DNA of 64,000 nucleotides from Thermoleophilia bacterium (lineage in GTDB: Bacteria; Actinomycetota; Thermoleophilia; RBG-16-64-13): NCBI GenBank assembly GCA_040768135.1, contig JAXGNF010000003.1:11191-75190 (forward strand), read 5' to 3'. Position numbers and translations under genes: made by a program. Positions 9,153-39,755 of the stretch are shown piece by piece (positions within the stretch are counted from its first letter, which is position 1; each line of letters opens with the position of its first letter). The notes below the pieces were generated by a model. That model was not told the DNA's origin, did no database searches, and saw nothing but the letters and a program-made list of their open reading frames with translations.

Positions 9153-10343
9153 TCACGTTTGGTCGCCCGAAGCCTGTTGAGCACCTGCGTTTTCAAGGCC
9201 GGCCGAGGCGGCAGACCGTGAGGTAGTGGATGCATATGGGGCAGCAGGTACCTGCGGTCCTCCGGTCTGTGCGACGCCGGCCTGGCCCGGATCGACCGGA
9301 ACGGGCTGTCCGACCGAAGCCGCCTGACTGCCCCATCCTTGCGGGTGGGCTTGATAGCGGGCTTGGCGCCGCTCTCGATTCCGGCGCACCAGAATCAGGC
9401 AGATCCGGTAGACAATGAACGCAACCACGGCAAGCACCACCAGCACCGGGATCAACACTCCAAGTCCTCGGATCACGGCGTTGAAGGCCTTCACGAGATT
9501 GTGGAGACCATCTTTCAAGGCCGCGATCACGCCCCAGTCCACACCAGAAGCCAACACCGCTCCGATCTCGTATATAGTCATGGCGATGGTCGAGTAGCCG
9601 GTGTGTTCATCTAGGTAGCGCAGGCGCCCTTTCAAGGCTTCAAGCTCTTCTTGGGCCCGATTGAGCACCGACTGCACGGTCAGAGTGTCGTCGATGGTCT
9701 CGGCCTTGCGGAGGAGCGCAGAGATCGAATCCACGTAGGCCTCGGAGTTCTTTATGCGGGCCTGCAGGTCTACGTACTCCTCCGTAACATCCTGGGTGTA
9801 GAGCGACTGGTTCTTGAGCGTACCCAGCTTGGCGGCGTCGCTCAGAGCCTGGGTGAAGGACGCGCTGGGCACCCGGATGGCCACGGTGCCGCTCCTCATG
9901 GCGTCATCCTCGCCGCCGGCGTAAGAGGTGGAACTGACAAGGTAGCCTCCGTAGCGATCGGCCAGCAGGATGGCCTGATCAAGAACGGTCTCGAACCGGC
10001 CGCGTTCGACTTCGATCTCGAGTTGCGCATCGCTGATTATCTTCTGGCCGGAGACGACGGACGCAGTCACCGCCCCCGACCAAGCTCTTTCTGGAGTCTC
10101 AGTCGAAGAGTATTGCCGAGCTGCCGTACCGCCTCCCCCGTCATAGTCCGCCTGCCCCCGGGTCGCAGTATTCATCGGTGCAGCCGTGGTCGCCGTTACC
10201 CAAGGCGCACCCTCCCCAGCCGGTGTGGTCATGTTCTTGTCGGCCCCTCCACAGCCGACGAAACCCAGCAGCCCGGCCAATCCCAACACGACCAGACCGG
10301 CCGCAACGGTCGTCAACGTCCTTTGTGCCCTTTTTGACCGCAC
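9153..10343 (-). CDS. DUF4349-like lipoprotein with a C-terminal TM helix and a low-complexity tail
   Basis: GTG start at 10341-10343, 6 nt after GAAGGAGG. Signal peptide VRSKRAQRTLTTVAAGLVVLGLAGLLGFVGCGG with a lipobox. The body carries a coiled-coil region and a C-terminal TM (LIPVLVVLAVVAFIVYRICLILV) typical of DUF4349. The first 60 codons of the ORF-track ORF are S/R/P-rich junk. Confidence 0.6.
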   Translation of the reverse strand: MRSKRAQRTLTTVAAGLVVLGLAGLLGFVGCGGADKNMTTPAGEGAPWVTATTAAPMNTATRGQADYDGGGGTAARQYSSTETPERAWSGAVTASVVSGQKIISDAQLEIEVERGRFETVLDQAILLADRYGGYLVSSTSYAGGEDDAMRSGTVAIRVPSASFTQALSDAAKLGTLKNQSLYTQDVTEEYVDLQARIKNSEAYVDSISALLRKAETIDDTLTVQSVLNRAQEELEALKGRLRYLDEHTGYSTIAMTIYEIGAVLASGVDWGVIAALKDGLHNLVKAFNAVIRGLGVLIPVLVVLAVVAFIVYRICLILVRRNRERRQARYQAHPQGWGSQAASVGQPVPVDPGQAGVAQTGGPQVPAAPYASTTSRSAASAGLENAGAQQASGDQT

Positions 10344-10470
10344 AGCCCGCCTCCTTCTCGAGTTCTTTGACCCCTGTGTGTGCTGGGACGGCTTGGCCGA
10401 CCACCCGGTTCCGGGCATAGTCGACCAGAGCCACGAAACGAGAGGAGCCCTTGGGCAGATCGGGCTTGTC

Positions 10471-11052
10471 TTACGAGAGCAGGTCGGCCACCCGCCTGGA
10501 GAGCTTCTGGGCGGTCGCTTTTCCAACCAACCTGTCTATCAGACGACCATCAGAATCGACTACGAAGACGGTGGGCACTGCCTGTACCTTGTACGCAGTC
10601 GCGATATCGCCGGAGTCCATCATGACGGGAAAATCCCAGCCTCCGGTCTTCATGAATTTTTCCATGGCGGCCTCGGTGTCACCTACCGCCAAGACCAACA
10701 ATCCTGCTCTTTGTGATTCGGCTCGATAGAACCTATCGAGTTCGGAGGCTTCCGCTCCGCAGGAGCCTCACCAACTGGCCATGAAGGCCAGCACCAGTGG
10801 TTTGCCCCGATACTCGCCCAGAGAGACGCCCGACCCGTCTAGAGTAACGCCGGCAAAATCGGGGGCTGCATCCCCAGAAACGCTGGAAGGAGTCGCCTGA
10901 CCTGCAGTCGCGTCGGAACCGGTCGCCGCCGGTCCACCGGCGCCGCATCCCGCGAGGAGTCCCACCGCAGCCACCAGAACCAGCGCCACGAACAATCCGG
11001 AGGTAGCCGCCCACGCCACCGGTCGACTCTTGTCACCCATCGCCGCTCTCAT
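10471..11052 (-). CDS. TlpA/ResA-family thiol:disulfide oxidoreductase lipoprotein with an in-frame TGA (putative Sec) replacing the first Cys of the CxxC motif; candidate selenoprotein
   Basis: Two ORF-track ORFs (10768..11199 and 10471..10701) are in the SAME frame, separated only by a TGA at 10768..10770. The joined protein reads ...LLAGCGAGG...APDFAGVTLDGSGVSLGEYRGKPLVLAFMASW-[TGA]-GSCGAEASELDRFYRAESQRAGLLVLAVGDTEAAMEKFMKTGGWDFPVMMDSGDIATAYKVQAVPTVFVVDSDGRLIDRLVG. This is the ResA/TlpA pattern (VLVNFWASWCGPC...) with U in place of C. The ATG at 11050-11052 abuts the lgt stop. A nonsense pseudogene (TGC/TGT to TGA) is the alternative. Confidence 0.6.
10722..10740 (-). promoter_or_regulatory. 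candidate bacterial SECIS-like hairpin downstream of the in-frame UGA
   Basis: mRNA CUCGAUA-GGUUC-UAUCGAG forms a 7-8 bp perfect stem whose apical loop begins GG, about 35 nt 3' of the UGA. This is within the 16-37 nt window of the bSECIS model. Confidence 0.4.
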
Positions 11053-11054
11053 AC

Positions 11055-11864
11055 TCACCGTTTTCCTTTCGCCGTCCCGGACGTCGCCACGAGAGCCTCG
11101 GCCGGCTGATCTATAGGCCCCGCAGGACGGAGCCGTCCACGAGTCCCAAACCACCACATACCCACGATACCGACCACCATCATGCCGATCCCTATCCACT
11201 GCATCTGGGTCAGTCCCAGAGCCATCGACTCATTGGTCCGGATGAACTCGATCAAGAGCCGTTCGAGGCCGTGCAGGAGAGAGAATGCAAAAATCAGGGG
11301 GCCTTCCCGCCTGAACAAAGGCCCGATGACCCAGGCAAGCAGGGCAAAGATGACGAGCGAAGCCACAGTCTCATAAAGCTGCGTGGGATGCACCGGTGTC
11401 GGCGTCGGTGGGATCCCGTGTGGGAATATCATGCCCCAGGGAAGATCGGTGGGAGTGCCGTGATCGCAGCCTCTGAGAAAACAACCGATGCGGCCGACAG
11501 CATATCCGACCGATACCGCCATGGCCCCGCAGTCCATCACCGCGGCCAACCTCTGCTTCGACAGCAGAGTGACTATCACCACTGCAACGATCGCCCCGAA
11601 CAAGCCTCCGAACCAAACCAACCCTTCACCACTCAACAGGTTCCTGGGCCACTGCTCGGGATGGAGAATCAAATAATGGACCTTGGCCCCCAGAAGACCG
11701 CCAACGATGCAGGCGATGAGTAGGCCGTAGATGAAATCGGGGTTGACTCCGCGTTTCTTGAATTGCCAGTGAGCGACGAAGCCCGCAGATATGAATGCGA
11801 GCGCCATCATCACCCCGTATGAATTAAGGGTGAAGCCTCCTATATGCAACAGCTCCGGATACAT
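11055..11864 (-). CDS. lgt: prolipoprotein diacylglyceryl transferase
   Basis: Seven-TM protein with Lgt motifs (GGFTLNSYGVM..., GRIGCFL.GCDHG.P...WG..FP, HPTQLYE). Confidence 0.85.
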   Translation of the reverse strand: MYPELLHIGGFTLNSYGVMMALAFISAGFVAHWQFKKRGVNPDFIYGLLIACIVGGLLGAKVHYLILHPEQWPRNLLSGEGLVWFGGLFGAIVAVVIVTLLSKQRLAAVMDCGAMAVSVGYAVGRIGCFLRGCDHGTPTDLPWGMIFPHGIPPTPTPVHPTQLYETVASLVIFALLAWVIGPLFRREGPLIFAFSLLHGLERLLIEFIRTNESMALGLTQMQWIGIGMMVVGIVGMWWFGTRGRLRPAGPIDQPAEALVATSGTAKGKR

Positions 11865-11981
11865 CCAAGCCCTCTAGCCTACCGGTGACGGCTTTCTGCG
11901 TTCGGTAGAGCAGAGCACCGAGAGGCCATGGTCATGTGGGAAACGCCATGAGGACCGCACGGGTCCTCGACCCTAGCCTGC

Positions 11982-12206
11982 TCAGCTGAAGCCGGAGCTC
12001 GTGGAACAGACCCGAGGCTCGCAGTTGCTAAAGCATGACTGAGAAGCCGAGCCCAGACCCATCACGCCGCCGAAGCCCGTGAACCGCTGCTCGACCTCGC
12101 GCCCGTTGCACTCGGGGCACACCTTAGCTTCGTCCTTCAAAAAACCGAGGACGAACACCTCGAACTCCTTGCCACAAGAACGGCACCTGAGATCATACGT
12201 GGCCAT
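11982..12206 (-). CDS. FmdB-family zinc-ribbon regulatory protein
   Basis: MATYDLRCRSCGKEFEV...CPECNG, the twin CxxC zinc ribbon of the FmdB family. Confidence 0.6.
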   Translation of the reverse strand: MATYDLRCRSCGKEFEVFVLGFLKDEAKVCPECNGREVEQRFTGFGGVMGLGSASQSCFSNCEPRVCSTSSGFS

Positions 12207-12532
12207 TAGACCAACCCGAATTCGCGCTCGTAATCACTTTGGGCGCGGGCCCCGATCAGCTGGCTCTTGAGTTCGCCCCCGCTGAACATGATGACCGTAG
12301 GGATGCTCATGATGCCGAAGCGGGCGGCCAAATCCTGATTGAGATCCACATTCACCTTCACGACACTGACCGTATCAGGGTGGTCAGCAGCCAGCTTCTC
12401 GAGCACCGGCCCCACCATACGACACGGACCACACCAAGGCGCCCAGAAGTCGGCCACCACAGGGACTGTGGACGTAGATATTATCTGGTCGAACTCCTCT
12501 GCGTTGACTTCTTGGACGGTCCCACTACTCAT
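12206..12532 (-). CDS. trxA: thioredoxin
   Basis: From the ATG at 12532 (RBS AGGAGAAGG): MSSGTVQEVNAEEFDQII...VVADFWAPWCGPCRMVGPVLE...IPTVIMF, the canonical WCGPC thioredoxin. The upstream in-frame extension in the ORF track is rejected. Confidence 0.85.
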   Translation of the reverse strand: MSSGTVQEVNAEEFDQIISTSTVPVVADFWAPWCGPCRMVGPVLEKLAADHPDTVSVVKVNVDLNQDLAARFGIMSIPTVIMFSGGELKSQLIGARAQSDYEREFGLV

Positions 12533-12720
12533 TGCCTTCTCCTTCTTGCGCTGCAGCCGGTCCTCCGGCCCTGCAAATGTGTATCTTACCCTACACTGCG
12601 GCATTTCAGCGGCCACTACGTGCCCGGCCGCACACGCGGCCCCCTCTCCGGGCCCGTGTCCGCGTATTGTTACCCAATCAACGAAATCCGCTAACCTATA
12701 TTCATAAGTCACCGAAGAAC

Positions 12721-16452: not shown

Positions 16453-16649
16453 CCCCGCCTCCCCGCAGTGGTTTTTTGCTACCGGAAGCGACCCCCCACG
16501 ACGTGCGCGGAGAAAACATGGGGCCTCGGTTTGGCCGGCGCACTCCCGGGCAATAACAGGTCTGAACAACTACGATGCGAGGTCTCTCTGTGGAACCTAG
16601 GAATAAGAACGATCAACCCGGCTTCCGGAGGTTGCAGAGCGAGGTCGAC

Positions 16650-17063
16650 AGAATGCTCCTCGAACTGCTCCGCGGAGAACGCACGCCCCGGTACGGCAAG
16701 ACCGCCTTCCGTCCCAACGCTGATGTGTATTTCGACAAGGGTGCCCAGCAAGTGGTGGTTAGATTCGAGTTGCCCGGCATCGATCCCGGTGCCATAGACC
16801 TCGAGGTCGATGACACCGCTCTGCGGGTGAGTGGAGTCCGCACCGACGAGCGACGCCCCGACGCCGTCTATCAACAGATGGAGATCGCTTATGGGCGCTT
16901 CGAAAGGACCATCGTGCTGCCACCCGAGGTCGACGGCGCCAACGCTTCAGCCGGCTATCACGCGGGCTATCTGGAAATAGTGCTACCTGTGAAGCCTCGA
17001 TCGGTCCACAGGCGCATAGAAATCAACACGACCGACGAGGACGAAGGAGGGCAGGACCGATGA
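16650..17063 (+). CDS. Hsp20/alpha-crystallin small heat-shock protein
   Basis: FRPNADVYFDKGAQQVVVRFELPGIDPGAIDLEVDDTALRVSGVR...YGRFERTIVLPPEVD is an alpha-crystallin domain. The ATG at 16650 is preceded by GAGGT. The longer ORF from 16575 has atypical codon usage. Confidence 0.75.
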   Translation, partial: RMLLELLRGERTPRYGKTAFRPNADVYFDKGAQQVVVRFELPGIDPGAIDLEVDDTALRVSGVRTDERRPDAVYQQMEIAYGRFERTIVLPPEVDGANASAGYHAGYLEIVLPVKPRSVHRRIEINTTDEDEGGQDR

Positions 17064-19573
17064 CCGCCCGCCGAAGAGATTCTGACGCCCATCCCGGTGC
17101 CCCGGAGTTCTTCGACACCGGCCCCTTGGAGGCGGCCGGCGCCGATTTCGTGATCATCTCCCGCGAGCCGATGGATACGTCTCTGACCGGCAGCCCGACC
17201 ACGCTACCCATTCTGCCGCTCAAAGACACGGTCGTGTTTCCCGAGACCGTGATGCCTTTGGGTGTCGGACAGCCGCGTTCGGTGCAGTTGATAGACGACG
17301 TCCTGCGAGGCGATAAGCAGGTAGGCTTGGTGGCATCGCGAGACCCGGAACTCGAGACACCGGGGCCGGACGACGTATACCGCGTTGGTGTACTAGCCAG
17401 TGTCCAGAGGATGATCAAGGCCCCCGACGGGACCCTCCGCATCATAGTCCAGGGCATACGCCGCATCCGGATCGAGAACTTCACGACCGAAAAGCCGTAT
17501 CTCATGGCAGAGATCAGTGACCTGCCCGACGTAGTCATGCCGGGTACCGAACTGGAGGCCCTGCAACGCAACCTCGTCTCGGTCTACACGAAGATCATCG
17601 CGCTGGTGCCATATCTGCCGGACGAACTCGAGATGGCCGCCACCGGCATCGAGGATCCGGCCGTGTTGGGCTACTTCATTGCATCGACGATGCGCATCAA
17701 GACCGAGGAGAAGCAGGCGCTTCTCGAAGAGATCGACGTCATCAAACGCCTTCGCCGGTTGACCGCCTTGTTGAACCGTGAGCTTGAAGTCCTGGAGTTA
17801 GGCTCGAAGATCCAAGATCAAGTGCAGTCTGAGATGGACAAGAGCCAACGGGAGTATGTACTCCGCCAACAGATGAAGGCCATCCAGGAAGAACTAGGTG
17901 AGACCGACGAGACCCAGGCCGAAGTCAACGAGTTACGGGAACGTATCGAGAAGGCCGGCCTCCCTGAGGAGGTCGACAAGCAGGCCCGACGGGAGCTGGA
18001 CCGACTGGCCAAGCTACCGCCTGCAGCGGCGGAATACGGAGTCATCCGTACGTATCTAGACTGGATCGTCTCGCTACCCTGGTCGGTGGTCACCGAGGAC
18101 CACCTCGATATCCCCAATGCCCGGGAAGTACTCGACGATGACCACTACGACCTGGAGGATGTCAAAGACCGCATCCTCGAGTTTCTGGCCGTCCAGAAGC
18201 TGAAGAGCGGGGCTACGGGACCCATCTTGTGCTTCGCGGGACCTCCAGGTGTCGGCAAGACCAGCCTCGGCAAGAGCATCGCCAGAGCCATGGGGCGCAA
18301 ATTCATCCGCATCAGCGTGGGGGGAGTGCGCGACGAATCTGAGATACGCGGACACCGGCGCACCTATGTGGGGGCAATGCCCGGGACCATCATCCGGGCC
18401 CTCCGTGACGCCGGCAGCAGCAACCCGGTCTTCATGATCGACGAGATCGACAAGATGGGTTCTGACTGGCGAGGCGACCCGTCCAGTGCCATGCTTGAGG
18501 TGCTCGACCCCGAACAGAACGGCAGCTTCCGCGACCACTATCTCGACCTACCCTTCGACCTCTCTAAGGTGATGTTCGTCTGCACTGCGAACATGCTCGA
18601 CACCATCCCCGGACCATTGCGCGATCGCATGGAGATCATCTCCATCGCCGGCTATACCGAAGAAGACAAGCTCCACATCGCCCGGCGGTACCTTGTGCCC
18701 AGGCAGCTCGAACGCAATGGTCTGAAACCCGGGCAGCTGAAGGTGACCGATGCGGCTCTGCGGACGGTGATCGAGAGCTACACACGTGAAGCCGGGGTAC
18801 GCAACCTAGAACGACAGATCGGCACCATAGCCCGCAAGTTCGCCCGCATGGTGGCCGAGGAAGGCCGGAAGCGCGCCACCGTCGGCGACAAGCAGGTAGC
18901 GTCGTATCTGGGCAAAAAGAAGGTGTTCCGCGAAACCAAGCGCCGCACCAGCGAACCCGGGGTATCTACCGGTCTGGCCTGGACCCCGACAGGCGGAGAC
19001 ATACTATTCATAGAAGCTCGGGCGATGCCGGGCACCGGACGTCTCACCCTGACCGGCCAACTCGGCGACGTCATGAAAGAGTCGGCCCAGGCCGCCCTTA
19101 CCTATGTGCGGAGCGCTGCGTCGGAATTGGGCGCTGAACCCGACTTCTTCCAGACGCATGACATCCACGTGCATGTCCCCGCCGGCGCGGTGCCTAAGGA
19201 CGGCCCTTCGGCTGGTGTAGCCATAGCAACGGCCCTGGCTAGTATGGTCTCCGGCCGGGCGGTGGACCCGAATGTGGCCATGACCGGCGAGTTGACCCTC
19301 ACCGGACAGGTGTTGCCGGTGGGAGGCATAAAGGAGAAGGTGTTGGCCGCACGGGCCGCGGGCATCACCCGAGTGCTCCTCCCCGACCGCAATCAAGCCG
19401 ATGTCGCCGAGATTAGAGGGGAAGACGTGTTGAGCGGCCTTCAGCTCTGCTACGTGGAGCACATCGGCGCCGTGTTGGAACAGGTGCTGGTCGCTGCAAA
19501 GAAGCGCCGCTCCCGTGTTTCGTGCTCGACACCCGAAGCGGTAGAGGCAGAGAGAGATGGTGCAAACGCCTGA
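17060..19573 (+). CDS. lon: ATP-dependent Lon protease (endopeptidase La)
   Basis: LON N-domain (LPLKDTVVFPE), AAA+ Walker A GPPGVGKTSLGKSIA, and protease domain with PKDGPSAGVAIATAL (catalytic Ser). Its start overlaps the hsp20 stop (ATGA). Confidence 0.9.
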   Translation: MTARRRDSDAHPGAPEFFDTGPLEAAGADFVIISREPMDTSLTGSPTTLPILPLKDTVVFPETVMPLGVGQPRSVQLIDDVLRGDKQVGLVASRDPELETPGPDDVYRVGVLASVQRMIKAPDGTLRIIVQGIRRIRIENFTTEKPYLMAEISDLPDVVMPGTELEALQRNLVSVYTKIIALVPYLPDELEMAATGIEDPAVLGYFIASTMRIKTEEKQALLEEIDVIKRLRRLTALLNRELEVLELGSKIQDQVQSEMDKSQREYVLRQQMKAIQEELGETDETQAEVNELRERIEKAGLPEEVDKQARRELDRLAKLPPAAAEYGVIRTYLDWIVSLPWSVVTEDHLDIPNAREVLDDDHYDLEDVKDRILEFLAVQKLKSGATGPILCFAGPPGVGKTSLGKSIARAMGRKFIRISVGGVRDESEIRGHRRTYVGAMPGTIIRALRDAGSSNPVFMIDEIDKMGSDWRGDPSSAMLEVLDPEQNGSFRDHYLDLPFDLSKVMFVCTANMLDTIPGPLRDRMEIISIAGYTEEDKLHIARRYLVPRQLERNGLKPGQLKVTDAALRTVIESYTREAGVRNLERQIGTIARKFARMVAEEGRKRATVGDKQVASYLGKKKVFRETKRRTSEPGVSTGLAWTPTGGDILFIEARAMPGTGRLTLTGQLGDVMKESAQAALTYVRSAASELGAEPDFFQTHDIHVHVPAGAVPKDGPSAGVAIATALASMVSGRAVDPNVAMTGELTLTGQVLPVGGIKEKVLAARAAGITRVLLPDRNQADVAEIRGEDVLSGLQLCYVEHIGAVLEQVLVAAKKRRSRVSCSTPEAVEAERDGANA

Positions 19574-20027
19574 CGAACGCTGGAAACCGGTTGACCGGGA
19601 CAAGGTTTATGCGGAACTGGACCATGCCGCCGACGTCTTCGTGGAAGTCTGGGGAGATGACCTGCCCAAGCTTTTCGAGAACGCGTTGTTCGCCCTCTAC
19701 GACCAGTTGGCCGAGCTCGAGGGTTTCACCGCCGAGTACGAAAAGACGATCACGGTGCGCGCCCCGACGAATGCCGAGGCGCTACGCGCGCTGTTATCCG
19801 AAGCGCTCTACCGGTTCGAGACTGAGGGGTTCGTCGCAGTAACCGCAAGGATCGCGGTCGACACCGAAGGGAACGAAGTGCAGGCCACCGCCCATCTGCG
19901 GGGAGAGACGCTGGATAGACACCGTCACACTCTTCTGAAGGAGGTCAAAGCGGTGACCTATCACCAGTTGGCGGTGGATGTGATCCCCGAGGGAGGATGG
20001 CGGGCGACTTTGCTTTTCGACGTGTAG
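19557..20027 (+). CDS. archease (RtcB activator)
   Basis: YAELDHAADVFVEVWGDDLPKLFENA...KAVTYHQLAV matches archease family motifs. It lies directly upstream of rtcB. Confidence 0.75.
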   Translation: MVQTPDERWKPVDRDKVYAELDHAADVFVEVWGDDLPKLFENALFALYDQLAELEGFTAEYEKTITVRAPTNAEALRALLSEALYRFETEGFVAVTARIAVDTEGNEVQATAHLRGETLDRHRHTLLKEVKAVTYHQLAVDVIPEGGWRATLLFDV

Positions 20028-20131
20028 AGACCGCCGCGACATTCCTAGTGCGGACACGCCGATCGACCGGCCCAGCCGGCAGAGCTGAGCAGGTCGCGCT
20101 CTAGGCGACGCCCAGAGGAGGTGACGGAGCA

Positions 20132-21571
20132 ATGGCGACCGTCAACCAGGTGAATGACTACGTGTGGGAGCTTCCGGTAATGGGCGGCATGCGTGTACCC
20201 GGGCGCATCTACGCCGATAGACGGCTGATGGAGGCATTGCGGGAGGACCAGAGCCTTGTCCAGGTTGCCAACGTGGCCCACCTACCGGGGATTCTCTGTT
20301 GTTCCATGGCTATGCCCGACATCCATTTCGGTTACGGATTCCCGATCGGTGGCGTGGCCGCGTTCAGTGCGGAAGAAGGCGTGGTCTCGCCGGGGGGAGT
20401 GGGCTATGACATAAACTGCGGGGTCCGGCTGATGGCCACCGACCTCGAAGAAGACGACCTCAAGGACGACATCCGCAGACTGGTCGACCAACTCTTCCGT
20501 GATGTGCCGTCCGGGGTGGGCGCGAGCGGCGCGATCGCGAAATTGTCGCGCGGAGAGTTGCAAAAGCTGGTGGTCGAAGGAGCTGCTTGGGCGGTGGGAC
20601 GTGGCTACGGTACGAAGCAGGATCTGAAGCACACCGAGGACGGCGGCGCTCTGCCCGGCGCCGACCCCGACGCGGTTGGGGACAGAGCCTACACCCGCGG
20701 CCTGGACCAAGTGGGGACTTTGGGCTCAGGCAACCATTTTCTCGAGATCCAGACGGTCGACGAGATCTTCGATCCCGAAGCGGCAGCGGCATATGGTCTG
20801 TGCGAAGGCCAGGTGACGATCATGGTCCACTGCGGCTCGCGAGGTTTTGGCTATCAAGTGTGTGAAGACTATCTGGGAGTCATGGCCGAGGCCACCCATC
20901 GATACAACATGGAGCTCCCCGACCGCCAGCTGGCCTGTGCTCCAGTGACATCGTCCGAGGGCAGACGGTACCTCGCGGCGATGGCCTGTGCAGCCAACTA
21001 TGCCTGGGCTAATCGCCAGATGATCATGCACCTGACCGAGCAGGCTCTGCTCCGCGCTTTGCGCTTATCACCCAAAGACCTGAACATGCGTCTGGTATAC
21101 GACGTCGCCCACAACATAGCAAAGCTCGAGACTCACGAGGTATCCGGTTCTTCAGTCAACACATGTGTCCATCGCAAAGGAGCCACCCGAGCCTTCGGCC
21201 CCGGACGACCGGAGGTGCCGGATGACTACCGCGAGGTAGGGCAACCGGTGTTGATCCCGGGAGATATGGGCACGGCTTCTTTCGTGTGCAAAGGCACTGA
21301 GGAGGCTATGCGCCAGACGTTCGGTTCCACCTGCCATGGAGCCGGTCGGGTGATGAGTCGTTCTCAAGCCCTGAAACGAGCCCGCGGTAGAGCCATCGAT
21401 CGAGAACTCGAGTCGGCGGGCATCTTGGTCCGCTCACAGGGACGAAAAACCCTGGCTGAGGAGATGCCCGAAGCCTATAAAGACGTTGATCAGGTGGTGT
21501 CGGTGATGGAAGGAGCCGGCATCTCACCGCGAGTGGCGCGGTTGCGGCCTTTGGGAGTGGTGAAGGGCTAG
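20132..21571 (+). CDS. rtcB: RNA-splicing ligase RtcB (3'-phosphate/5'-hydroxyl RNA ligase)
   Basis: GYDINCGVRL, GSGNHFLEIQ, and CHGAGR with the catalytic His are RtcB motifs. Confidence 0.9.
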   Translation: MATVNQVNDYVWELPVMGGMRVPGRIYADRRLMEALREDQSLVQVANVAHLPGILCCSMAMPDIHFGYGFPIGGVAAFSAEEGVVSPGGVGYDINCGVRLMATDLEEDDLKDDIRRLVDQLFRDVPSGVGASGAIAKLSRGELQKLVVEGAAWAVGRGYGTKQDLKHTEDGGALPGADPDAVGDRAYTRGLDQVGTLGSGNHFLEIQTVDEIFDPEAAAAYGLCEGQVTIMVHCGSRGFGYQVCEDYLGVMAEATHRYNMELPDRQLACAPVTSSEGRRYLAAMACAANYAWANRQMIMHLTEQALLRALRLSPKDLNMRLVYDVAHNIAKLETHEVSGSSVNTCVHRKGATRAFGPGRPEVPDDYREVGQPVLIPGDMGTASFVCKGTEEAMRQTFGSTCHGAGRVMSRSQALKRARGRAIDRELESAGILVRSQGRKTLAEEMPEAYKDVDQVVSVMEGAGISPRVARLRPLGVVKG

Positions 21572-30533: not shown

Positions 30534-31172
30534 CTACTTGTCTCGGTAGTGGAACAGTAGGAGAGTGCCTTTCCCGTGACTCACGCGGGCTCGGGTGTCT
30601 ACCATCATGTTGCTGACGCCCCGAGTAGACGACTGAAGGAGCGTCTCACCTCTCAAAGGGTAGAGCAGTCCCTCGGTCACCACCTCATCCACCTCGGGAG
30701 TCAGGGCCAGCAGGGAGACGATGTCTCCGGGTGCCCCCGCGACTTCCGCCTCCCCTTTGACCAGGAAGATCTCGTGCAGTTCGTCGACCAGGCGCACTCG
30801 GACACCCTCCAGCCAGGGTGACGTAAGGAGGAGTAGATTCCCGATGAAGTGATCGAAGCGAGGCCCGCCAAGCGCTCCATACACAGTGATTTCGCCCGCG
30901 CCGCGATCCACGGCGAGCCGCATCGCAACCTCGGTATCAGTCTCGTTCTTCGCCGTCGGTAGGAGCAAGACCTCGACTCCCCGATGCTCCAGCCACCGGC
31001 GGGTCGCAGGATCGATCGAGTCCATGTCGCCCACGAGCAGAGCGGGGATAATGCCCATTCCAACCAGCGCCTGGGCCCCCCCGTCGACGGCCACGATCAA
31101 GTCGGCTTCAACAACAGAGGCGGCATCCAACTCGACCACCGGTCTCGAACCCGCTACTACGACAGCACGCAT
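30534..31172 (-). CDS. thiN: thiamine diphosphokinase
   Basis: LIVAVDGGA...VGDMDSI is the TPK catalytic-domain motif (GD.DS). It is the first gene after a TPP riboswitch. Confidence 0.75.
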   Translation of the reverse strand: MRAVVVAGSRPVVELDAASVVEADLIVAVDGGAQALVGMGIIPALLVGDMDSIDPATRRWLEHRGVEVLLLPTAKNETDTEVAMRLAVDRGAGEITVYGALGGPRFDHFIGNLLLLTSPWLEGVRVRLVDELHEIFLVKGEAEVAGAPGDIVSLLALTPEVDEVVTEGLLYPLRGETLLQSSTRGVSNMMVDTRARVSHGKGTLLLFHYRDK

Positions 31173-31244: not shown

Positions 31245-31335
31245 GCGGGCTATCGCAGATCACCGTTACTTCCCTTCGCTGGCATTACCCAGATCAGGTT
31301 CGCAGGGTCTGTGGCCTAGCCACACTCTCAGCTAC
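31245..31335 (-). ncRNA. TPP (thiamine pyrophosphate) riboswitch / THI element
   Basis: The minus-strand sequence contains GAACCUGAUCUGGGUAAUGCCAGCGAAGGGAAG, the conserved TPP-riboswitch core. It is preceded by ...CACAGACCCUGC (CUGAGA-like) and lies in the 5' leader of the thiN-ykoF-thiXYZ-like operon. Boundaries are approximate. Confidence 0.75.
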
Positions 31336-31684
31336 AAGCTCCCCTAGCAAGGCACATTGAATGTGTGCTTAGTATACCATCGACAACGCACGATCGGCTG
31401 GGACACTATTTTGATAAACAGATATCGCACCGCGTTATAGCGCAACGTGATAGAGTGTTATTCAGTGTCACCGGTCGATCGATTTTTGGGAACTAGCGGC
31501 AGTTCTTCCTGAGGAACTCCTGCAGGTTCTTGGGTTTTCGCGAGGCCGGGAGGCCTGCAGAGTCGGGGGGCGGCCGATTCGCCGGCGTGGTGACCACTCG
31601 AGACCGGGATCACTTGGGAATCGAGGGCGGTGGCGGTCAACGACGCGGGCGGGCGCCGCGATTCGTCCGTATGGAGAGGAGCGA

Positions 31685-32622: not shown

Positions 32623-33825
32623 GTGAGCGGACAGAAGACAACCACGCTCGCCGTCACCGGTAACGAAGCCGCAGCGGAGGCAATGCGCCAGATAGACCCC
32701 GACGTGGTCTGTGCTTACCCTATCACTCCACAGACCGAGGTCGTGCAGATCTATGCACAAATGGTAGCCGACGGCAGGGTGACCTCCGAGTTCGTGACGG
32801 TGGAGTCGGAGCACTCGGCTATGAGCGCCGTGATAGGTGCAGCCGCCGGCGGCGCCCGCACTATGACTGCCACCTCTTCCCAGGGGTTCGCCCTCATGTG
32901 GGAACTTCTCTTTGTGGCTTCGAGTTACCGGCTACCAGTAGTGATGACCACAGTCAACCGGGCTCTTTCGGGTCCCATCAACATCCACTGCGATCACAGC
33001 GACACTATGGGTGGTCGTGATAGCGGCTGGATCCAGCTCTATGGTGAAGACCATCAACAGGCCTATGACAACTGCATCCAGGCCGTGCGCATCGGGGAAC
33101 ATATGGACGTCCGCCTACCCGTCATGCACATGTACGATGGCTACGTCATCAGTGGGGCCATAGGGCCTTTGGTCATGCTCACCGACGAGCAGGTCCATGA
33201 CTTTGTTGGGCCCTTCACACCCATCAACCCCCTACTTGACCCTAAGCGTCCGGTCACAGTAGGCCCATTCGACGGTCTGCACGGTTGGTACTTCGAACAC
33301 AAGGTGGCGCAGAACCGAGCTATGGACCGGGCCCTCAAAGTAATCCAGGACGTGGCCGATGAGTTCGCCGAGTTGAGTGGACGGCATTACGGTCTGCTCG
33401 ACCCTTATCGACTCGAAGACGCCGAGATCGCCATTGTAGTGGTCAACTCCACTGCAGGGACAACCCGCATGGTGGTCGACAAGCTGCGAGCGCGGGGAGT
33501 CAAGGCCGGGATGATCCGCATGCGGGTGTTCCGTCCCTTTCCCTACGCCGCTTACGCCAAAGCGCTCGAGCATGTCAAAGTCGTGGGCGTGCTCGATCGG
33601 GCCGACTCCTTCGGAGCACAAGGCGGACCGCTCTTTCTGGAGATCCGAGCGGCCCTCTACGACAACGACCCGCGGCCCCAGGTGTTGCCGTTTGTCTATG
33701 GATTGGGCGGCCGGGACGTCTTCCCGGACAACATCGAGCAGGCATTCGCAGTGCTGGAACAGGCGGCAGCAGGCAAGAAACGGAGCTCGACCGAGCGGCG
33801 CTATCTCAACCTGCGGGAAGACTGA
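32623..33825 (+). CDS. porA: pyruvate:ferredoxin oxidoreductase alpha subunit
   Basis: N-terminal AVTGNEAAAEAMRQIDPDVVCAYPITPQTE is the PFOR domain I signature. 400 aa. Confidence 0.9.
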   Translation: MSGQKTTTLAVTGNEAAAEAMRQIDPDVVCAYPITPQTEVVQIYAQMVADGRVTSEFVTVESEHSAMSAVIGAAAGGARTMTATSSQGFALMWELLFVASSYRLPVVMTTVNRALSGPINIHCDHSDTMGGRDSGWIQLYGEDHQQAYDNCIQAVRIGEHMDVRLPVMHMYDGYVISGAIGPLVMLTDEQVHDFVGPFTPINPLLDPKRPVTVGPFDGLHGWYFEHKVAQNRAMDRALKVIQDVADEFAELSGRHYGLLDPYRLEDAEIAIVVVNSTAGTTRMVVDKLRARGVKAGMIRMRVFRPFPYAAYAKALEHVKVVGVLDRADSFGAQGGPLFLEIRAALYDNDPRPQVLPFVYGLGGRDVFPDNIEQAFAVLEQAAAGKKRSSTERRYLNLRED

Positions 33826-33834
33826 GGTGGGGGT

Positions 33835-34696
33835 GATGACGAACGGAAACGGAGGCAACGGCAAGAGACCACGGGGGGGTGGCCCGAGAGACGCGCATGT
33901 AGCTCAGCCCAAAGGCTCGGCCCTCTACGAGGTTCTGAAAGGGATCGACTTTGAGCGCAGGCAATTGGTGGGTAAGAATCCCTCCATCGGTCTTTTTGAC
34001 CTTGTCAGAAAAGAGGACGGTAGCTATCGCTGTTACTCATGCACCCTCTGCGAGCGCGTCTGTCCGGTGGACTGTATCGAACTCGAATACTGCCCGGAAT
34101 TCCCCGAGGAACCCTTCGATTTCGACGCCGCTCGGGCGGCCGCTTTGACGACGCTCCCGGGGGAGAGTTGTGGAGCTGCATCAGCGTGTGTGATGGGGGA
34201 AGCGCCCGCTCAGTTCGTCCCCGAGATCGACAAGAAGCTCCTTGACCCTGTGATCGCGGGTATCCGGGCGGGATCGGGCCTGGTGGAGGCCCTCCACGCG
34301 ACTCAGGAGGCGTACGGCTACCTGCCGCGGGTGGCTTTGGAGGATATCGCCGAGGAGATAAGCATTCCTTTCTCGCGCGTCTTTGGCGTGGCCAGCTTCT
34401 ACAGCCAGTTCCGGCTCCGGCCGGTAGGCAAATACGTCATTGATGTCTGCATGGGGACTGCGTGTCACGTGGCGGGCGCGCCGCTTATCGTGGAAGCCTT
34501 CAGCCAGGAACTTGAGATCCCCGTCGGGGGCACGACACCAGACGGCCTCTTCACCCTGCAGACCGTCAACTGCGTGGGTGCCTGTGCCCTCGCCCCGGTA
34601 GTTCGCATCGGCGAGGACGAGACGTTCGGCCGCTTGGGTCCTACAGAGGCCCGGCGCCTGGTGCGCAGGCTTCGCAGGCAGGAGGCGGCGTCATGA
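33835..34696 (+). CDS. NuoE/HydC/StnC-like [2Fe-2S] thioredoxin-like ferredoxin subunit with a Cys-containing N-terminal extension
   Basis: ATG at 33835 after GAGGTGGGGG. The core SRVFGVASFYSQF...VCMGTACHVAGA...VNCVGACALAPV is the NuoE fold. The extra roughly 100-aa N-terminal region carries CYSCTLCERVCPVDC. Confidence 0.8.
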
Positions 34697-36612
34697 ATGC
34701 CGCCGGAGAAGCTCGTGCCGCCGCTATCTATGCAGCCCTCGACGCTGCGGCCGACAAGAACGCTTACCTTTCCGACGACACCAAGACCGAGATCCGCCTC
34801 TGTGCCGGTACGGCCTGCCACGCCTCCGGCCGAGTAGCACTACGCGAGGCGGTGGAGAAGGCCCTCGCTCAACGGGGACTCAGCGAACAGGTGAGGGTCA
34901 TCGAGACAGGCTGCCACGGCTTCTGCCAACAGGGCCCCATCATCGTCATCAGGCCCAAGGGGATCTTCTATCCGCGCCTGAAGCCCCAGGACATTGATGA
35001 GATCATCGAGGCCAGCGTGGTGGGCGACGGCGTGGTCGAACGCCTTCTGTACCGACATCCCCAGACCGACGAACCCCTGGCGCTGGAAGAAGAGATCCCC
35101 TTCTATGCCCTTCAGAAGCGGATTGTCCTCAGCCTCAACGGCAAGATCGATCCTTATTCGATCGATGACTATCTGGCCCACCATGGGTACACGGCGCTCG
35201 CCAAGGTCTTGGCCGAAGCCGATCCGCAGGCCCTCATCGCTGAGATTGAGAAGAGCGGCCTCCGGGGTCGAGGTGGCGCCGGTTTCCCGACGGCGCGCAA
35301 GTGGCGCTCATGCCGGGCCAACCCAGGCGACAAGCATTACATCATCTGCAACGCCGACGAGGGCGATCCCGGAGCCTTCATGGACCGCTCGGTACTCGAA
35401 GGCAACCCCCACAGCGTCATCGAAGGCATGGTCATAGCAGCATACGCTATCGGCGTCGATAACGGTCCCGTCGAAGGCTACGTCTATGTACGACGCGAGT
35501 ACCCATTTGCGGTGGAACGTCTGCGCCGGGCTCTGGATCAGGCTCGGGAGAGAGGCCTGCTGGGCCGGGACATCCTGGGCTCGGGTTTTGATTTCGACAT
35601 CCGCATAAACCAAGGTGCAGGTGCCTTTGTCTGCGGAGAATCCACCGCCCTAACCCTCTCCATCGAGGGACACCGGGGCATGCCCCGGGGTAAGCACATC
35701 CGCACCGTGGCCCGTGGCCTGTGGGGTCAGCCCACCAACCTCAACAACGTGGAGACCTACGCCAGCGTACCCTGGATCATCAACCACGGCGCTGAGGAAT
35801 TCGCCGCCGTGGGCACCGCTACCAGCAAAGGCACCAAGATATTCTCACTCACCGGCAAAGTGATGAATGGTGGACTTATCGAGGTGCCCATGGGTGTCAC
35901 CCTGCGAGAGGTGATCTTCGATATCGGAGGCGGTATGCTGCCGGGCCGCGAGTTCAAAGCGGTCCAGCTGGGCGGTCCGTCAGGAGGCTGCCTCCCGGCC
36001 TCGCTCCTGGACGAACCCATTGACTTCGAGAGCCTGGTCGCCGCCGGCTCCATGATGGGTTCCGGTGGCATGGTGGTAGTGGACGACACTACCTGCATGG
36101 TCGATTTTGCCAAGTTCTTCTTACAGTTCACTGCAGAGGAGAGTTGTGGCAAGTGCGTGCCCTGCCGAGTGGGAACCACCCGTATGCTCGAGATACTCGA
36201 ACGGATATCGGCAGGCTTGGCCTCACTCGAAGAGGTCGAACTGCTAGAACGGTTGGCCGACGATGTGGTCGAAGGGTCGCTTTGTGCCCTTGGAGGCAGC
36301 GCCCCTAACCCGGTCCTCTCCACCCTGCGCTACTTCCGGGATGAAGTCGTGGCTCATGTGACCGAGCGACGTTGTCCGGCCAAGGTCTGCCGTCCGCTCA
36401 TCCGCTATACGATCGACAAAGAGGCGTGCACTGGGTGCCGGGCCTGCATCACAGCCTGCCCGACCGGCGCAGTGAGCGGAGAACGCAAAGAGCCCCATCA
36501 CATCGACCAGAAACTCTGTATCCAGTGCGACGCCTGTCGCCAGGCCTGTCGGTTCGACGCCGTCCGGGTTGAGACCGGGATACCGTCGCTCGTCGAAGGG
36601 AGGCGCAGATGA
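34693..36612 (+). CDS. NuoF/HydB/StnB-like NAD(H)-binding FMN subunit with an N-terminal thioredoxin-like 2Fe-2S domain and a C-terminal 2x[4Fe-4S] ferredoxin
   Basis: N-terminal CAGTACHASG...CHGFCQQGP is a 2Fe-2S site. GRGGAGFPTARKW is the NuoF FMN/NADH site. The SLBB and 4Fe-4S region is ESCGKCVPCR. C-terminal CTGCRACITACP and CIQCDACRQACR. Overlapping start/stop with both neighbours. Confidence 0.85.
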   Translation: MNAAGEARAAAIYAALDAAADKNAYLSDDTKTEIRLCAGTACHASGRVALREAVEKALAQRGLSEQVRVIETGCHGFCQQGPIIVIRPKGIFYPRLKPQDIDEIIEASVVGDGVVERLLYRHPQTDEPLALEEEIPFYALQKRIVLSLNGKIDPYSIDDYLAHHGYTALAKVLAEADPQALIAEIEKSGLRGRGGAGFPTARKWRSCRANPGDKHYIICNADEGDPGAFMDRSVLEGNPHSVIEGMVIAAYAIGVDNGPVEGYVYVRREYPFAVERLRRALDQARERGLLGRDILGSGFDFDIRINQGAGAFVCGESTALTLSIEGHRGMPRGKHIRTVARGLWGQPTNLNNVETYASVPWIINHGAEEFAAVGTATSKGTKIFSLTGKVMNGGLIEVPMGVTLREVIFDIGGGMLPGREFKAVQLGGPSGGCLPASLLDEPIDFESLVAAGSMMGSGGMVVVDDTTCMVDFAKFFLQFTAEESCGKCVPCRVGTTRMLEILERISAGLASLEEVELLERLADDVVEGSLCALGGSAPNPVLSTLRYFRDEVVAHVTERRCPAKVCRPLIRYTIDKEACTGCRACITACPTGAVSGERKEPHHIDQKLCIQCDACRQACRFDAVRVETGIPSLVEGRRR

Positions 36613-39600
36613 GCGCACGGACAGACAAAGAGACCCTGGCCGGTGGCTCTGCCAAAGCCACCCTCGGCAGTTCCTTGGGTGACGCTGCCGACGCCGCATC
36701 CCAAGTCACGCTCACAATAGACGGCAAAGAACTCCGTGCCCAAGCGGGCGAAACGGTCCTTGATGTCGCCCGACGTGCGCGAATCTACATCCCTGCCCTG
36801 TGTCACATCGCCGATACTGCCGCCTGGGGGGCCTGCCGTCTTTGCCTGGTTGAGGTGGACGGAGTGGATAAGCTCCAAGCCGCCTGCACCACCTGGGTGG
36901 CCGAGGGTATGGTGGTACGCACCAATACTCCACGTGTACGGGCCCGCCGTGAGAGCTATCTCAAGATGTACCTGTCCGACCACAACGCCTACTGCGAAGC
37001 TCCGTGCTCACATGCCTGCCCGACCCACATAGACATCCCCGCGTATATGGCAGCCTTGGCCGCCGGCGACCCGGACGAGGCCCTCTCCATCGTACTGGCC
37101 GAACTCCCTTTTCCGGGCGTCCTTGGACGGATATGCCCGCGCTACTGTGAGCCGGTCTGTCGCCGTAGCGAAGTAGACGACGCCGTCGCCATCTGCGACC
37201 TACACCGCGCGCTGGGCGACCACGCCGGGCGCGGCCAGGTGCGTCTCCGCCCCGGCCGGCCCAGTGGCCGGCGTGTAGCCGTAATCGGCGCCGGCCCTGC
37301 AGGGTTGTCGGCCGCCTGGTTCCTGGCCGAGAAGGGACACCAGGTGACCATATACGACGAGCACGAAGAGCCCGGGGGCTTACTCCGATACGGTATCCCT
37401 GAGTTCAAACTCCCTCAGCGTGTGCTCGAAGACGAACTGCGGCCGCTCTGGGAGGCGGGGGTCCGCTTCTCCGGGGGGTCGAAGATACCCGCGGTAGGCG
37501 GCGCCGAGAGGCTGCTGGACGCCGGCTTCGACGCAGTCATAGTCGGCACCGGAGGCGGACCGGCGCCCAGAGCCCGTCGAACCGCTAAGGGAGAAAAGGT
37601 GTTGAGCGCCTCCAAGCTGCTTGGCCAGGTGCGCTCGGGCGACGCTGTCTCGCTGTCCCCCAAGGTGATAGTGCTCGGCGACGATGTGGTGGCCCTCGAC
37701 GCGGCCCGGACTGCTCTACGCCTTGGAGCCACAGAAGTAACCGTGATCACGCCCCGCCAGCCCGACGATCTCCCCGCGGGCGACCGCGAACTGACGGCCG
37801 CCTTTGACGAAGGGGTCAGGTTCGAGTTCGGCGCGGCCCACCCCAAGGCCTCCGCGTTTGCCGGCGACGACATCACAGTCATCGTCGAAAAAGAGCGCCC
37901 TACGGCGAAGCCCATAGATGCCCACCCGTCGACGGGGCGCACGGGCGCCCGGGGCGTGTTTGCCGCAGGCGACGCGATCGGTGGTGTTCAGTCGGTGATC
38001 CACGCGGTCGCGAGTGGCAAGCGCACCGCTCTCGCGGTAGACGCTTGGCTGCGGGATGTGGATCTTGACCAGTTGGAGCAAGACCTGGCCGAGTACGAGG
38101 CTCTACCGTATCTGGAGCAGCTCGCGCAGTCAGAGCGGATCGACACTCTGGGCCAACGTCTGGCCGAGCGGACGCCGGTGTGGCTCAAAATGGGAGCGAC
38201 TGCGGAGCCCGCGGGCCGGGCAGCTATGCCCAAGACGGCTAAGGCCAAGCGCCTCTCCGATCTCAACGTCGAAGTAGAGAAAGGCCTTAGCCTGGCGGTG
38301 GCCCAAGAGGAGGCCAAACGCTGTCTACAGTGCGTATGTCCGGCTCTGGGAACCTGCTCACTACAGAAGCTCGGGGTCGAGTACGGTATCACTGCCAACG
38401 AATTGGCGGTTAAGGGTGGCCGGGTACGGGTCGTAGGATCGCAGCATGAGCACCCCTTCATCAGGCGCGACATGGAGCGCTGTATCGCCTGCGGCCGCTG
38501 TGTCCGAGTCTGCCGCGACGTAGCGGGCCCAGCCTGCTACGACTTCACCGGCCGGGGCTTCACCATGAACGTCGACACTCCTTACAGCGAAGCCCTGCAG
38601 CTTGCCGACTGCATCAGTTGCGGGCGTTGTGTGAGCACCTGCCCGACCGGGGCCTTGACTTTCAACGAGCGGAGTCTTACCTCCTTCCGAGTCGACGAAA
38701 GCCGGTGCATCCTGTGCAGGGAGTGCGTGGAGGTCTGCCCGGTGGACGCCCTGGAAGAGACCAATCACTTCGAAGAGGCCCGCCGGAGGTGGCTTGAACT
38801 GGTCGGCAAAGGCAGTCAACTCGCCGGCGGCCACCGCATGTGTGCAGGTTGTGGGGCGCCGATAGTCGTACGCCAAGTGCTCATGGGGACGGACCGCCCG
38901 ACGGTGGTGGGAGCGGCTACGGGATGCCTCGAGGTAAGTACGACTATCTATCCGTACACTTCTTGGAAGGGTGGTTTTATCCACACAGCCTTCGAGAACG
39001 CTGCGGCCACCGTCAGCGGAGTCGAGACCGCCTACCGAGCTTTGCGAAAGAAGGGCACTATTGACGAGGATGTCAGATTCATCGCCTTCGGCGGTGACGG
39101 AGGCACGTACGACATCGGATTGCAGTCACTCTCCGGGGCCATGGAACGAGGCCACCGGATGCTCTACGTCTGCTACGACAACGGCGCTTACATGAACACC
39201 GGTTTCCAGCGCTCGGGCGCGACGCCGATCTCGGCTTGGACCACCACCAGCCCGGTCGGTAGAGAGTCGCCCGGCAAGTTGCAACACCGCAAGAACCTCA
39301 CCGAGTTGATGATCGCCCACGGCATACCGTACGTGGCCCAGGCCTCCCCCCACGATCCCCGCGACCTGGTACGCAAAGCCGCCAAAGCTTTGTCGATCGA
39401 TGGTCCGACGTTCTTGAACGTCCTCTCCCCCTGCCCGCGCGGATGGCGTTCGGACGGCGCCGAGAGCATCGACCTAGCCCGCGAAGCGGTGAACACCTGC
39501 TACTGGCCGCTCTTCGAATATGAAGATGGTGAGTACCGTCTGACCTACCGGCCGCATCACAAGCTGCCTCTGATACCGTGGCTGAAACGCCAAGGCCGCT

Positions 39601-39755
39601 TCGCTCATCTGTTCCAGCCAGGATATGAGGAAGCCCTCGCCAGTATCGAAGCTTGGGTAGATGAGGAGTGGGAAAAGCTGCTGCGCAAATGCGGTGAGCC
39701 CAGCGAGGCCGATTGGCAGGAGCATCTGCAAGAACACGGCTGCCTACTGCGTTGA
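36609..39755 (+). CDS. multidomain fusion protein: NuoG-type [2Fe-2S] ferredoxin + GltD/NfnB/StnA-like FAD-NAD(P)H oxidoreductase + polyferredoxin + C-terminal pyruvate:ferredoxin oxidoreductase beta (TPP-binding PorB) domain
   Basis: Domain order along the 1048 aa. (i) [32 protein letters not shown]...CRLCLVEV is a NuoG/FdhA-like 2Fe-2S domain. (ii) [14 protein letters not shown]...[14 protein letters not shown] followed by [29 protein letters not shown]...GVFAAGD is GltD-like. (iii) Four Cys clusters: [47 protein letters not shown]. (iv) [10 protein letters not shown]...[11 protein letters not shown]...[12 protein letters not shown] is the PorB TPP-binding motif GDG-x(24-27)-N. Confidence 0.8.
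   Translation: [1048 protein letters not shown]

Follow-up and report, generated by a model that had tools for sequence, protein, structure and literature searches.

How is a TGA triplet decoded when it stands inside the reading frame of a lipoprotein gene, at the active site of the encoded enzyme? The question is raised by a stretch of DNA from a Thermoleophilia bacterium (contig JAXGNF010000003.1 of assembly GCA_040768135.1), which was analysed as a whole over 64 kilobases (kb) and to which we refer from this point on as the window. Sequence and open reading frame (ORF) list agree on a 193-codon ORF on its minus strand with a single in-frame TGA. Positions in the mRNA are numbered from the U of the UGA as 1, so that position n lies at window coordinate 10771 - n, and the coordinates of the features discussed are collected in Table 1. 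A perfect hairpin 3' of the UGA, designated H2, is in our judgement very probably a bacterial selenocysteine insertion sequence (bSECIS) for this codon. The codon would then specify selenocysteine (Sec), the residue that makes the attack in the UxxC site of an exported lipoprotein, a TlpA-like thiol:disulfide oxidoreductase. The mechanism is a known one and only the example is new, since UxxC thioredoxin-fold selenoproteins have been catalogued and H2 fits the published SECIS model. What goes beyond the routine is that the element is extremely invariant in sequence over a large clade, that Cys-containing forms provide a clear series of fossils, and that the spacer holds a covarying hairpin, designated H1.

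When translated through the TGA, the ORF gives a product with a signal peptide ending in the lipobox LLAGC and one thioredoxin-fold domain (TlpA/AhpC-TSA/Redoxin; Pfam AhpC-TSA 7e-22, Redoxin 1e-19). When 12 homologs are aligned with it, the first Cys of their WCxxC active site is matched by the TGA; the site thus reads W-U-G-S-C, and the thioredoxin-fold domain has U at the first position of the CxxC motif; the protein sequence 3' of the TGA remains conserved, and conserved residues are found on both sides of it. Among NCBIfam models the best match is ResA, at 84 bits against a cut-off of 170, while the WAxxUGC_long model scores 28 bits against a cut-off of 300, and none of the NCBIfam selenoprotein models attains its cut-off on the read-through product. 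In all four of the other assemblies that span the whole gene, it is annotated as two fragments (94-96 and 56-73 amino acids) split at the TGA; in a fifth assembly a shorter contig stops just past the TGA. Thioredoxin-fold selenoproteins of the UxxC type are a well-known class (PMC13188914), with catalogued types, in sources including PMC13188914, such as a thiol:disulfide oxidoreductase of Prx-like type, a TlpA-like 'thiol-disulfide isomerase-like' protein and Redoxin-family proteins. The predicted protein resembles these in its fold and Pfam families (AhpC-TSA, Redoxin), in having Sec for the first Cys of CxxC, and in having Cys homologs. It differs from them in that the clade found here consists of lipoproteins encoded directly after lgt in uncultured Actinomycetota.

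From the codon before the UGA, the mRNA reads UGG UGA GGC UCC UGC GGA GCG GAA GCC UCC GAA CUC GAU AGG UUC UAU CGA G. An inverted-repeat search finds the two arms of H2, at 10722-10729 and 10733-10740 (C31-G38 and C42-G49), to be 8 nucleotides (nt) long, 100% complementary and separated by a 3-nt gap; the hairpin starts 27 nt past the UGA and lies inside the ORF, on the same strand. An earlier reading of the letters alone, hereafter the original prediction, had placed a perfect hairpin of 7-8 base pairs (bp) at 10722..10740, with a GG-first apical loop about 35 nt from the UGA, and had named recovery of this hairpin as the minimum free energy (MFE) structure as a check. All of this stands. When RNAfold is applied to the 71 nt that follow the UGA, MFE and centroid structures alike contain H2 (-26 kcal/mol, z = -2.4), which returns in a 141-nt context and in the isolated 19-mer (-8.4 kcal/mol, z = -3.6; -9.5 kcal/mol with 3-nt flanks). 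The loop comprises G38-C42, or G39-U41 if G38 and C42 pair, which puts it 34 nt (G38) or 35 nt (G39) from the UGA. The accompanying argument, that such a palindrome is unlikely by chance, is weak when taken alone: by our own estimate (64000 x ~6 loop sizes / 4^8), about six perfect 8-bp short-loop repeats are expected per 64 kb. Since a perfect 8-bp hairpin is not rare in a stretch of this length, the case rests on comparative evidence.

A protein word-index search returned only the 12 homologs and none of the split Sec fragments. Orthologs were gathered by DNA-level scans, of species-representative genomes and then of metagenomes with a profile, and two search peptides were used, namely [SP]ELDRFYR[EAD], 3' of the UGA, and YRG[KR]PLVL[AV]F, upstream of it. 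The genome scan yielded five orthologs at 61-64% identity, all five with TGA at the same codon, of which four come from metagenome-assembled genomes (MAGs) labelled Actinomycetota or Actinomycetes and one from a 2.7-kb contig binned as Lentisphaerae. The latter contig (L008; JAAYZO010000473.1, 2673 nt) carries its Sec ortholog in an actinobacterial-type locus, and its bin label, 'Lentisphaerae bacterium', probably reflects a binning error rather than lateral transfer. The metagenome profile scan gave 80 loci. The subfamily to which the window belongs (SF1) now holds 59 distinct TGA-carrying sequences, whose proteins are about 40-99% identical; the sources are five MAGs of Actinomycetota type and about 60 metagenome contigs, and the environments sampled include bioreactors and sediment. 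Where relatives replace the UGA, it is always by TGC or TGT; a Gaiellales MAG (CAYNPL010000020.1, L011), for instance, has TGC at this position. The conservation and pairing tables described below rest on 51 aligned sequences, to which eight more were added, giving 59, for the counts at third codon positions.

Across the 51 aligned sequences, every position from G28 to G49 is 96-100% invariant, including the third codon positions 30, 33, 36, 39, 42, 45 and 48, as against 35-76% conservation at the flanking third positions. Counted over 59 sequences, minor alleles make up 7 of 413 third positions inside the element versus 365 of 944 in the flanks, and no ortholog has an insertion or deletion between the UGA and the H2 region. 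The codons that spell the region, GAA, CTC, GAT, AGG, TTC, TAT and CGA, are mostly minority choices in the same genes (GAT 27%, AGG 14%, TAT 31%, CGA 5%, GAA 31%). H2 has a mean energy of -8.3 kcal/mol versus -1.9 kcal/mol for synonymous-codon randomisations that follow the family's own usage, and all 59 sequences individually reach p <= 0.05. Pairing is kept in 99.8% of cells across the 51 sequences, with two pairs changed on both sides, and the RNAalifold consensus consists of H2 and a short piece of H1. The departures from the common sequence are listed in Table 1; those in L057 alter the peptide to ELGRFYQ (D to G, R to Q). In the loop, G39, U40, U41 and C42 are identical in 59 of 59 sequences, with no minor allele (0/59) at the third positions 39 and 42. 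In the rest of these genes AGA occurs 25 times versus 37 for AGG, and TTT makes up 17% of Phe codons. That G39 and C42 never vary, though AGA and TTT are synonymous and common elsewhere, points to a loop that is recognised by its bases and not by structure alone.

The hairpin is also tied to the UGA itself. In a neighbour-joining tree (no bootstrap), four close Cys relatives are scattered through the Sec clade, each at a place of its own, and the state of H2 in them ranges from intact to absent (Table 1). The Gaiellales form, L011, has the look of a SECIS fossil left by a very recent replacement of Sec by Cys. In L083 and L097, two distant Cys homologs, the ELDRFYR peptide is identical but spelled with GAC and CGC codons, and the hairpin is missing. 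The peptide thus does not entail the hairpin; it appears instead that the peptide is frozen in Sec forms largely because its codons form the hairpin. The comparison at synonymous positions among orthologs, which the original prediction had proposed, thus came out in its favour, with the hairpin kept in 59 distinct TGA orthologs and decaying in Cys orthologs. This is SECIS-like behaviour, since the hairpin is kept with the UGA and decays following Sec-to-Cys replacement.

The bSECIS consensus considered here is the bSECISearch model by Zhang and Gladyshev, in the summary given by PMC13188914. In this model the apical loop has 3-9 nt and the upper stem 4-16 bp; G occurs in the first two positions of the loop, which usually follows N1-G-[G/U]-N-N2 with pairing between N1 and N2; the loop lies 16-37 nt from the UGA, and the MFE is <= -7.5 kcal/mol (PMC13188914). 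H2 is a stem-loop in the coding region 3' of an in-frame UGA; its loop has 3 nt on 8 bp or 5 nt on 7 bp, its sequence G38-[G39 U40 U41]-C42, with G38 and C42 paired in the MFE structure, follows the usual loop pattern, and its spacing of 34-35 nt and its energy of -8.4 kcal/mol lie within the limits. The residue at the UGA is Cys in homologs, and the TGA and the hairpin are both conserved in orthologs. The fit to the bSECIS model that had been claimed for this hairpin therefore extends to loop size, stem length, loop pattern, spacing and energy. H2 departs from the model in that its spacing is at the far end of the allowed range and that a second, covarying hairpin, foreign to the model, lies in its spacer. 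In addition, whereas bSECIS elements are mostly dissimilar from one another (PMC13188914), the sequence of H2 is invariant across a whole protein family.

A comparison with formate dehydrogenase is instructive for the geometry. In the minimal SECIS of E. coli fdhF, a 17-nt upper stem-loop (nt 15-31) begins 11 nt past the UGA, and U17, which is bulged, G23 and U24 are essential (PMC8659212). The literal spacing of H2 is 27 nt rather than 11, its stem is perfect, with no bulged U on the 5' arm, its loop has one extra U, and there is no lower stem between the UGA region and sequence 3' of the hairpin. GGU is found in the loop. The fdhF loop stands in the context A21 GGUC U26 and that of H2 in the context A37 GGUUC U43, so that the two are alike as A-[GGU..]-U. 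The 11-nt spacing of E. coli would be reached only with H1, at 16 nt, counted as looped out; subtracting 16 from G39 and U40 then gives 23 and 24, the positions of G23 and U24, as an arithmetic mapping. An enclosing lower stem of the fdhF kind (nt 1-12 with nt 50-66) was also considered and rejected, as it gave no covariation signal, with 192 of 2000 permutations at least as good (p about 0.1).

The spacer itself was described in the original prediction as a weak 5-bp helix, GGCUC CUGC GGAGC. That the region is structured holds true, but the helix was drawn one base out of register, the complementary strands being GCUCC and GGAGC, and is not the predicted fold; what the region holds is a second, structurally conserved hairpin, as judged by pair covariation and stability controls. 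In the free mRNA of the window a longer, imperfect helix, G2-C26, is predicted, which is also seen as the inverted repeat 10745-10755/10759-10769, and H1 itself amounts to -7.6 to -7.8 kcal/mol. The 27-nt spacer varies in sequence, and with nt 1-9 excluded a hairpin folds in 59 of 59 sequences, its outer pair being 13-28, 12-28, 12-29 or 14-27. In the register 13-18/23-28, 79.7% of cells pair and four pairs have changed on both sides. To illustrate, A14 accompanies U27 in eight sequences, so that the third position of a Pro codon, a synonymous site, is coupled to a second codon position (Gln vs Arg). At nt 15, where the third position is four-fold degenerate, 92% of sequences have G. The mean energy of H1 is -8.9 kcal/mol versus -4.8 kcal/mol in synonymous randomisations, and none of 1000 arm-swapped controls matched its stability. 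Between the hairpins, A30 (GAA, not GAG) is retained in 56 of 59 sequences, though GAA accounts for only the minority of Glu codons given above. With H1 left out, the unpaired spacer measures 9-15 nt, with a mode of 11 (27 of 59 sequences).

On geometry and numerology, we propose that H1 is a structured spacer that holds the effective distance from UGA to SECIS at its canonical value. By analogy with E. coli and Moorella, SelB-GTP-Sec-tRNASec would bind the apical GGU of H2 through its C-terminal winged-helix domain, and, once the UGA enters the ribosomal A site, the tethered SelB would deliver Sec-tRNASec in competition with RF2. H1 would remain folded at the mRNA entrance and loop out about 16 nt, and the roughly 11 unpaired spacer nt left would put G39/U40 in the place of E. 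coli G23/U24. The fuller version, a two-hairpin SECIS in which a sequence-invariant, SelB-binding H2 is preceded by a structure-only H1 that restores the canonical 11-nt spacing, the SelB site having moved one hairpin downstream in evolution with the old position still structured, is a tentative idea that we consider possible but doubtful. No earlier description of such an architecture was found, as far as the literature search reached.

A more distant TGA-carrying subfamily, SF2 (L085, L087, L089-L095 and L098), bears on where the recognised hairpin lies. Its members, at 31-35% identity, have TGA at the same codon and the motif W-x-x-x-U-x-x-C-V-A-E-V-P-L-L-K (e.g. L085:1834-1893). They share an invariant 8-bp hairpin, GUAGCGGA-GGU-UCCGCUAC, at +13..+31, which is built from rare GTA and CTA codons and has its GGU loop at +21..+23; no equivalent of H2 occurs 3' of it. 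Within the same protein family and at the same UGA position, both subfamilies thus have a GGU apical loop on an invariant 8-bp hairpin, and the GGU loop of the SF2 hairpin speaks for GGU as the recognised loop motif in this family. As a separate observation, a small CUGG-AAAUA-CCAG helix at +45..+57 recurs in eight of the nine distinct SF2 sequences folded.

The two subfamilies differ in that the SF2 hairpin, with its E. coli-like spacing, occupies exactly the position of H1 in SF1, whereas H2 lies further downstream. In the two-hairpin idea, the position occupied in SF2 would be the one from which the SelB site has moved. It also argues most strongly for the view that a SECIS 'naturally' sits at the H1 position, such that H1 and not H2 would bind SelB, and H2 would be an accessory (such as a ribosome pause, an aid to anti-termination or a stability element of the mRNA) on which efficient UGA recoding also depends. 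H1 does start 8-10 nt past the UGA, its loop falls at about +19..+22, near E. coli G23/U24, and its arms covary. An RNA recognised by a protein is nevertheless expected to retain its loop bases, and only H2 does so: the H1 loop is GARN with no conserved G[G/U], its G19-A20 derive from a Glu codon conserved for protein reasons, and H1 varies in both sequence and register, the window using 12-28 with a bulge. Moreover, the Cys form L018, which has lost H2, retains a stable H1-like helix (-11.2 kcal/mol). Recognition of H1 in place of H2 is accordingly unlikely, although of the alternatives it survives best.

Several observations weigh against H2 as the bSECIS of this gene, or limit what the comparisons can carry. 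No genes for Sec insertion were seen: ARAGORN finds no tRNA-Sec, and indeed 0 tRNAs, in the 64-kb window or in 34 related loci; Pfam and NCBIfam searches find no SelA, SelB or SelD among 25 window ORFs, 19 of them of SelA/SelB/SelD-like size and six near the gene; and regular-expression motifs of SelD, SelA and SelB were not found over 428 kb of related loci. Rfam offers no SECIS match either: at gathering thresholds the window gives only a thiamine pyrophosphate riboswitch elsewhere, and no SECIS appears in 10400-11100 at E <= 10. The distance from UGA to loop is at the long end of the model range and 16 nt above that of E. coli, where spacing is critical. The query [SP]ELDRFYR[EAD] favours orthologs with that peptide, whatever codons encode it. 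Because the 59 sequences share a phylogeny, they are less independent than the shuffle statistics imply, and the compensatory evidence for H2 is limited to a few sequences, because the element is nearly invariant. As regards H1, only 26 of the 59 hairpins individually beat synonymous randomisation at p <= 0.05, and H1 is less tightly tied to the UGA than H2 because L018 keeps its H1-like helix.

Downstream RNA structures are able to stimulate stop-codon read-through in other systems. With the Sec machinery not found in the window or the related loci searched, the UGA might then be read through without Sec, by near-cognate Trp or Cys or under a reassigned code, and the hairpins might stimulate read-through or slow RF2 independently of SelB. 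Such decoding is improbable here. The UGA stands at the nucleophilic Cys of the CxxC redox site, where only Cys or Sec gives an active enzyme and where its replacements in relatives are TGC or TGT without exception. TGA is also an ordinary stop at this very locus, as the lgt stop at 11057..11055, the UxxC thioredoxin-fold selenoproteins are an established class, and the H2 loop matches the SelB-type GGU motif.

It could also be asked whether H2 is only a coincidental palindrome, a by-product of the ELDRFYR peptide and codon bias with no function at the RNA level, given that the peptide is highly conserved in the family and that a related E-x-P-x-L motif follows the CxxC in many TlpA-like proteins. 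The joint probability of the minority codons used is about 5e-5 from codon usage in these genes, synonymous sites are frozen only inside nt 28-49, and substitutions that change the amino acid and preserve pairing are tolerated (L034, L057, L064). Together with the hairpin-free ELDRFYR codons of the Cys homologs L083 and L097, this makes an origin by chance highly implausible. That the TGA is a true stop in a pseudogene or between two genes, with the hairpin as an intrinsic terminator or other intergenic element, agrees with the two ORFs given by automatic annotation in every assembly examined, but is barely credible when the two halves jointly form one thioredoxin-fold domain with conserved residues on either side of the TGA, 59 distinct sequences share that TGA, no U-tract follows the hairpin, and the second fragment has neither a signal peptide nor a CxxC of its own.

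Reading H2 as a bSECIS corrects the annotation of a gene that is split into two ORFs in every assembly examined, and adds a widespread clade, of at least 59 distinct sequences, of exported thiol:disulfide oxidoreductase lipoproteins with predicted Sec in uncultured Actinomycetota. It also provides an example of dual coding in which four independent Sec-to-Cys replacements display the hairpin at successive stages of decay. If the idea of a structured spacer is true, bacteria can place a SECIS 16 nt further than E. coli does with the decoding geometry kept, which would bear on the spacing limits of bSECIS search tools in selenoprotein gene prediction and would allow Sec-insertion engineering with fewer constraints on the codons beside the UGA.

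Table 1. Features of the lipoprotein gene and its mRNA in the window, and variants of the hairpins in related loci
Feature	Position	Strand	Description
Sec-type lipoprotein coding sequence	10471..11052	-	193 codons/residues; ATG at 11052, TAA stop 10473..10471
In-frame UGA, predicted selenocysteine codon (residue 95)	10770..10768	-	Aligned with first Cys of CxxC
Alternative longer helix G2-C26	10745..10769	-	Predicted fold in free mRNA; 6 bp + 4 bp, loop GGA
H1 spacer hairpin	10743..10759	-	C12-G28; 5 bp + 1 bp, bulged C23, GGAA loop; nt 1-9 held single-stranded
A29 A30 linker	10741..10742	-	Unpaired, between H1 and H2; A30 is a synonymous third position
H2, predicted SelB-binding SECIS hairpin, CUCGAUAG-GUU-CUAUCGAG	10740..10722	-	8 bp, or 7 bp with GGUUC loop
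H2 apical loop G38 G39 U40 U41 C42	10729..10733	-	G39 is third base of AGG, C42 third base of TTC
L011 (TGC; CAYNPL010000020.1)	L011:3102-3160		H1 and H2 both intact
L019 (Cys form)			One H2 stem mismatch, C33G; -5.0 kcal/mol
L018 (Cys form)			H2 absent
L020 (Cys form)			H2 absent
L034			A37G; G.U pair
L064			A35G; G.U pair
L067			A48G; U.G pair
L057			C33U+G47A, A35G+U45C, A48G; two compensatory pairs and one wobble
L037			G38A; opens closing G38-C42 pair, in this sequence only

Searches for further signals of the same kind gave little. In-frame TGAs flanked by open frames elsewhere in the window number 136, a set too noisy to use at 61% GC, and GGU-loop hairpins 12-45 nt past such TGAs, in the window and all loci, revealed no convincing second selenoprotein. 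A walk past one window edge met purine-synthesis genes only. The 15-mer CGATAGGTTCTATCG has 38 matches in viral contigs, all in surroundings that are unrelated and look mostly non-coding; they show no relation to a UGA and were treated as chance. A hepatitis C virus (HCV) Rfam match (E = 5.9), the sole hit of a permissive scan of 10400-11100, was likewise put down to chance.

The lipoprotein gene lies in a conserved gene order on the minus strand (window 9153-12712) that comprises a thioredoxin, an FmdB-type zinc ribbon (CxxC form), lgt, the Sec-TlpA-like lipoprotein and a DUF4349 protein. Its ATG is 2 nt past the stop codon of lgt, which itself occupies 11055-11864 (Pfam LGT, 1e-52). On the Cys-form contig L019 (1042-1728) a DsbD_TM/CcdA gene is found between the TlpA-like gene and DUF4349. 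None occurs at the corresponding place in the window, so that no obvious electron donor for the Sec form is apparent.

Further from the gene, HSP20, Lon protease, archease and RtcB RNA ligase follow one another at 16575-21571 (+), according to gene calls on the same DNA in L001 and L002; in assembly L001, Lon, RtcB and UPF0182 are broken into fragments, which suggests a lower-quality assembly there. A thiamine pyrophosphate (TPP) riboswitch (Rfam RF00059, 68.7 bits) is located at 31254-31355 (-), upstream of the minus-strand ORF 30534-31172, whose start is about 80 nt away. The cluster at 32623-39755 (+) includes a PorA-like 2-oxoacid:ferredoxin oxidoreductase alpha subunit, a NuoE-like protein, a 639-residue NuoF-like protein with extra ferredoxin domains, and a 1048-residue fusion protein with an unusual combination of domains, namely 2Fe-2S, GltD-like Fer4_20 and Pyr_redox_2, 4Fe-4S, and a C-terminal TPP-binding domain.

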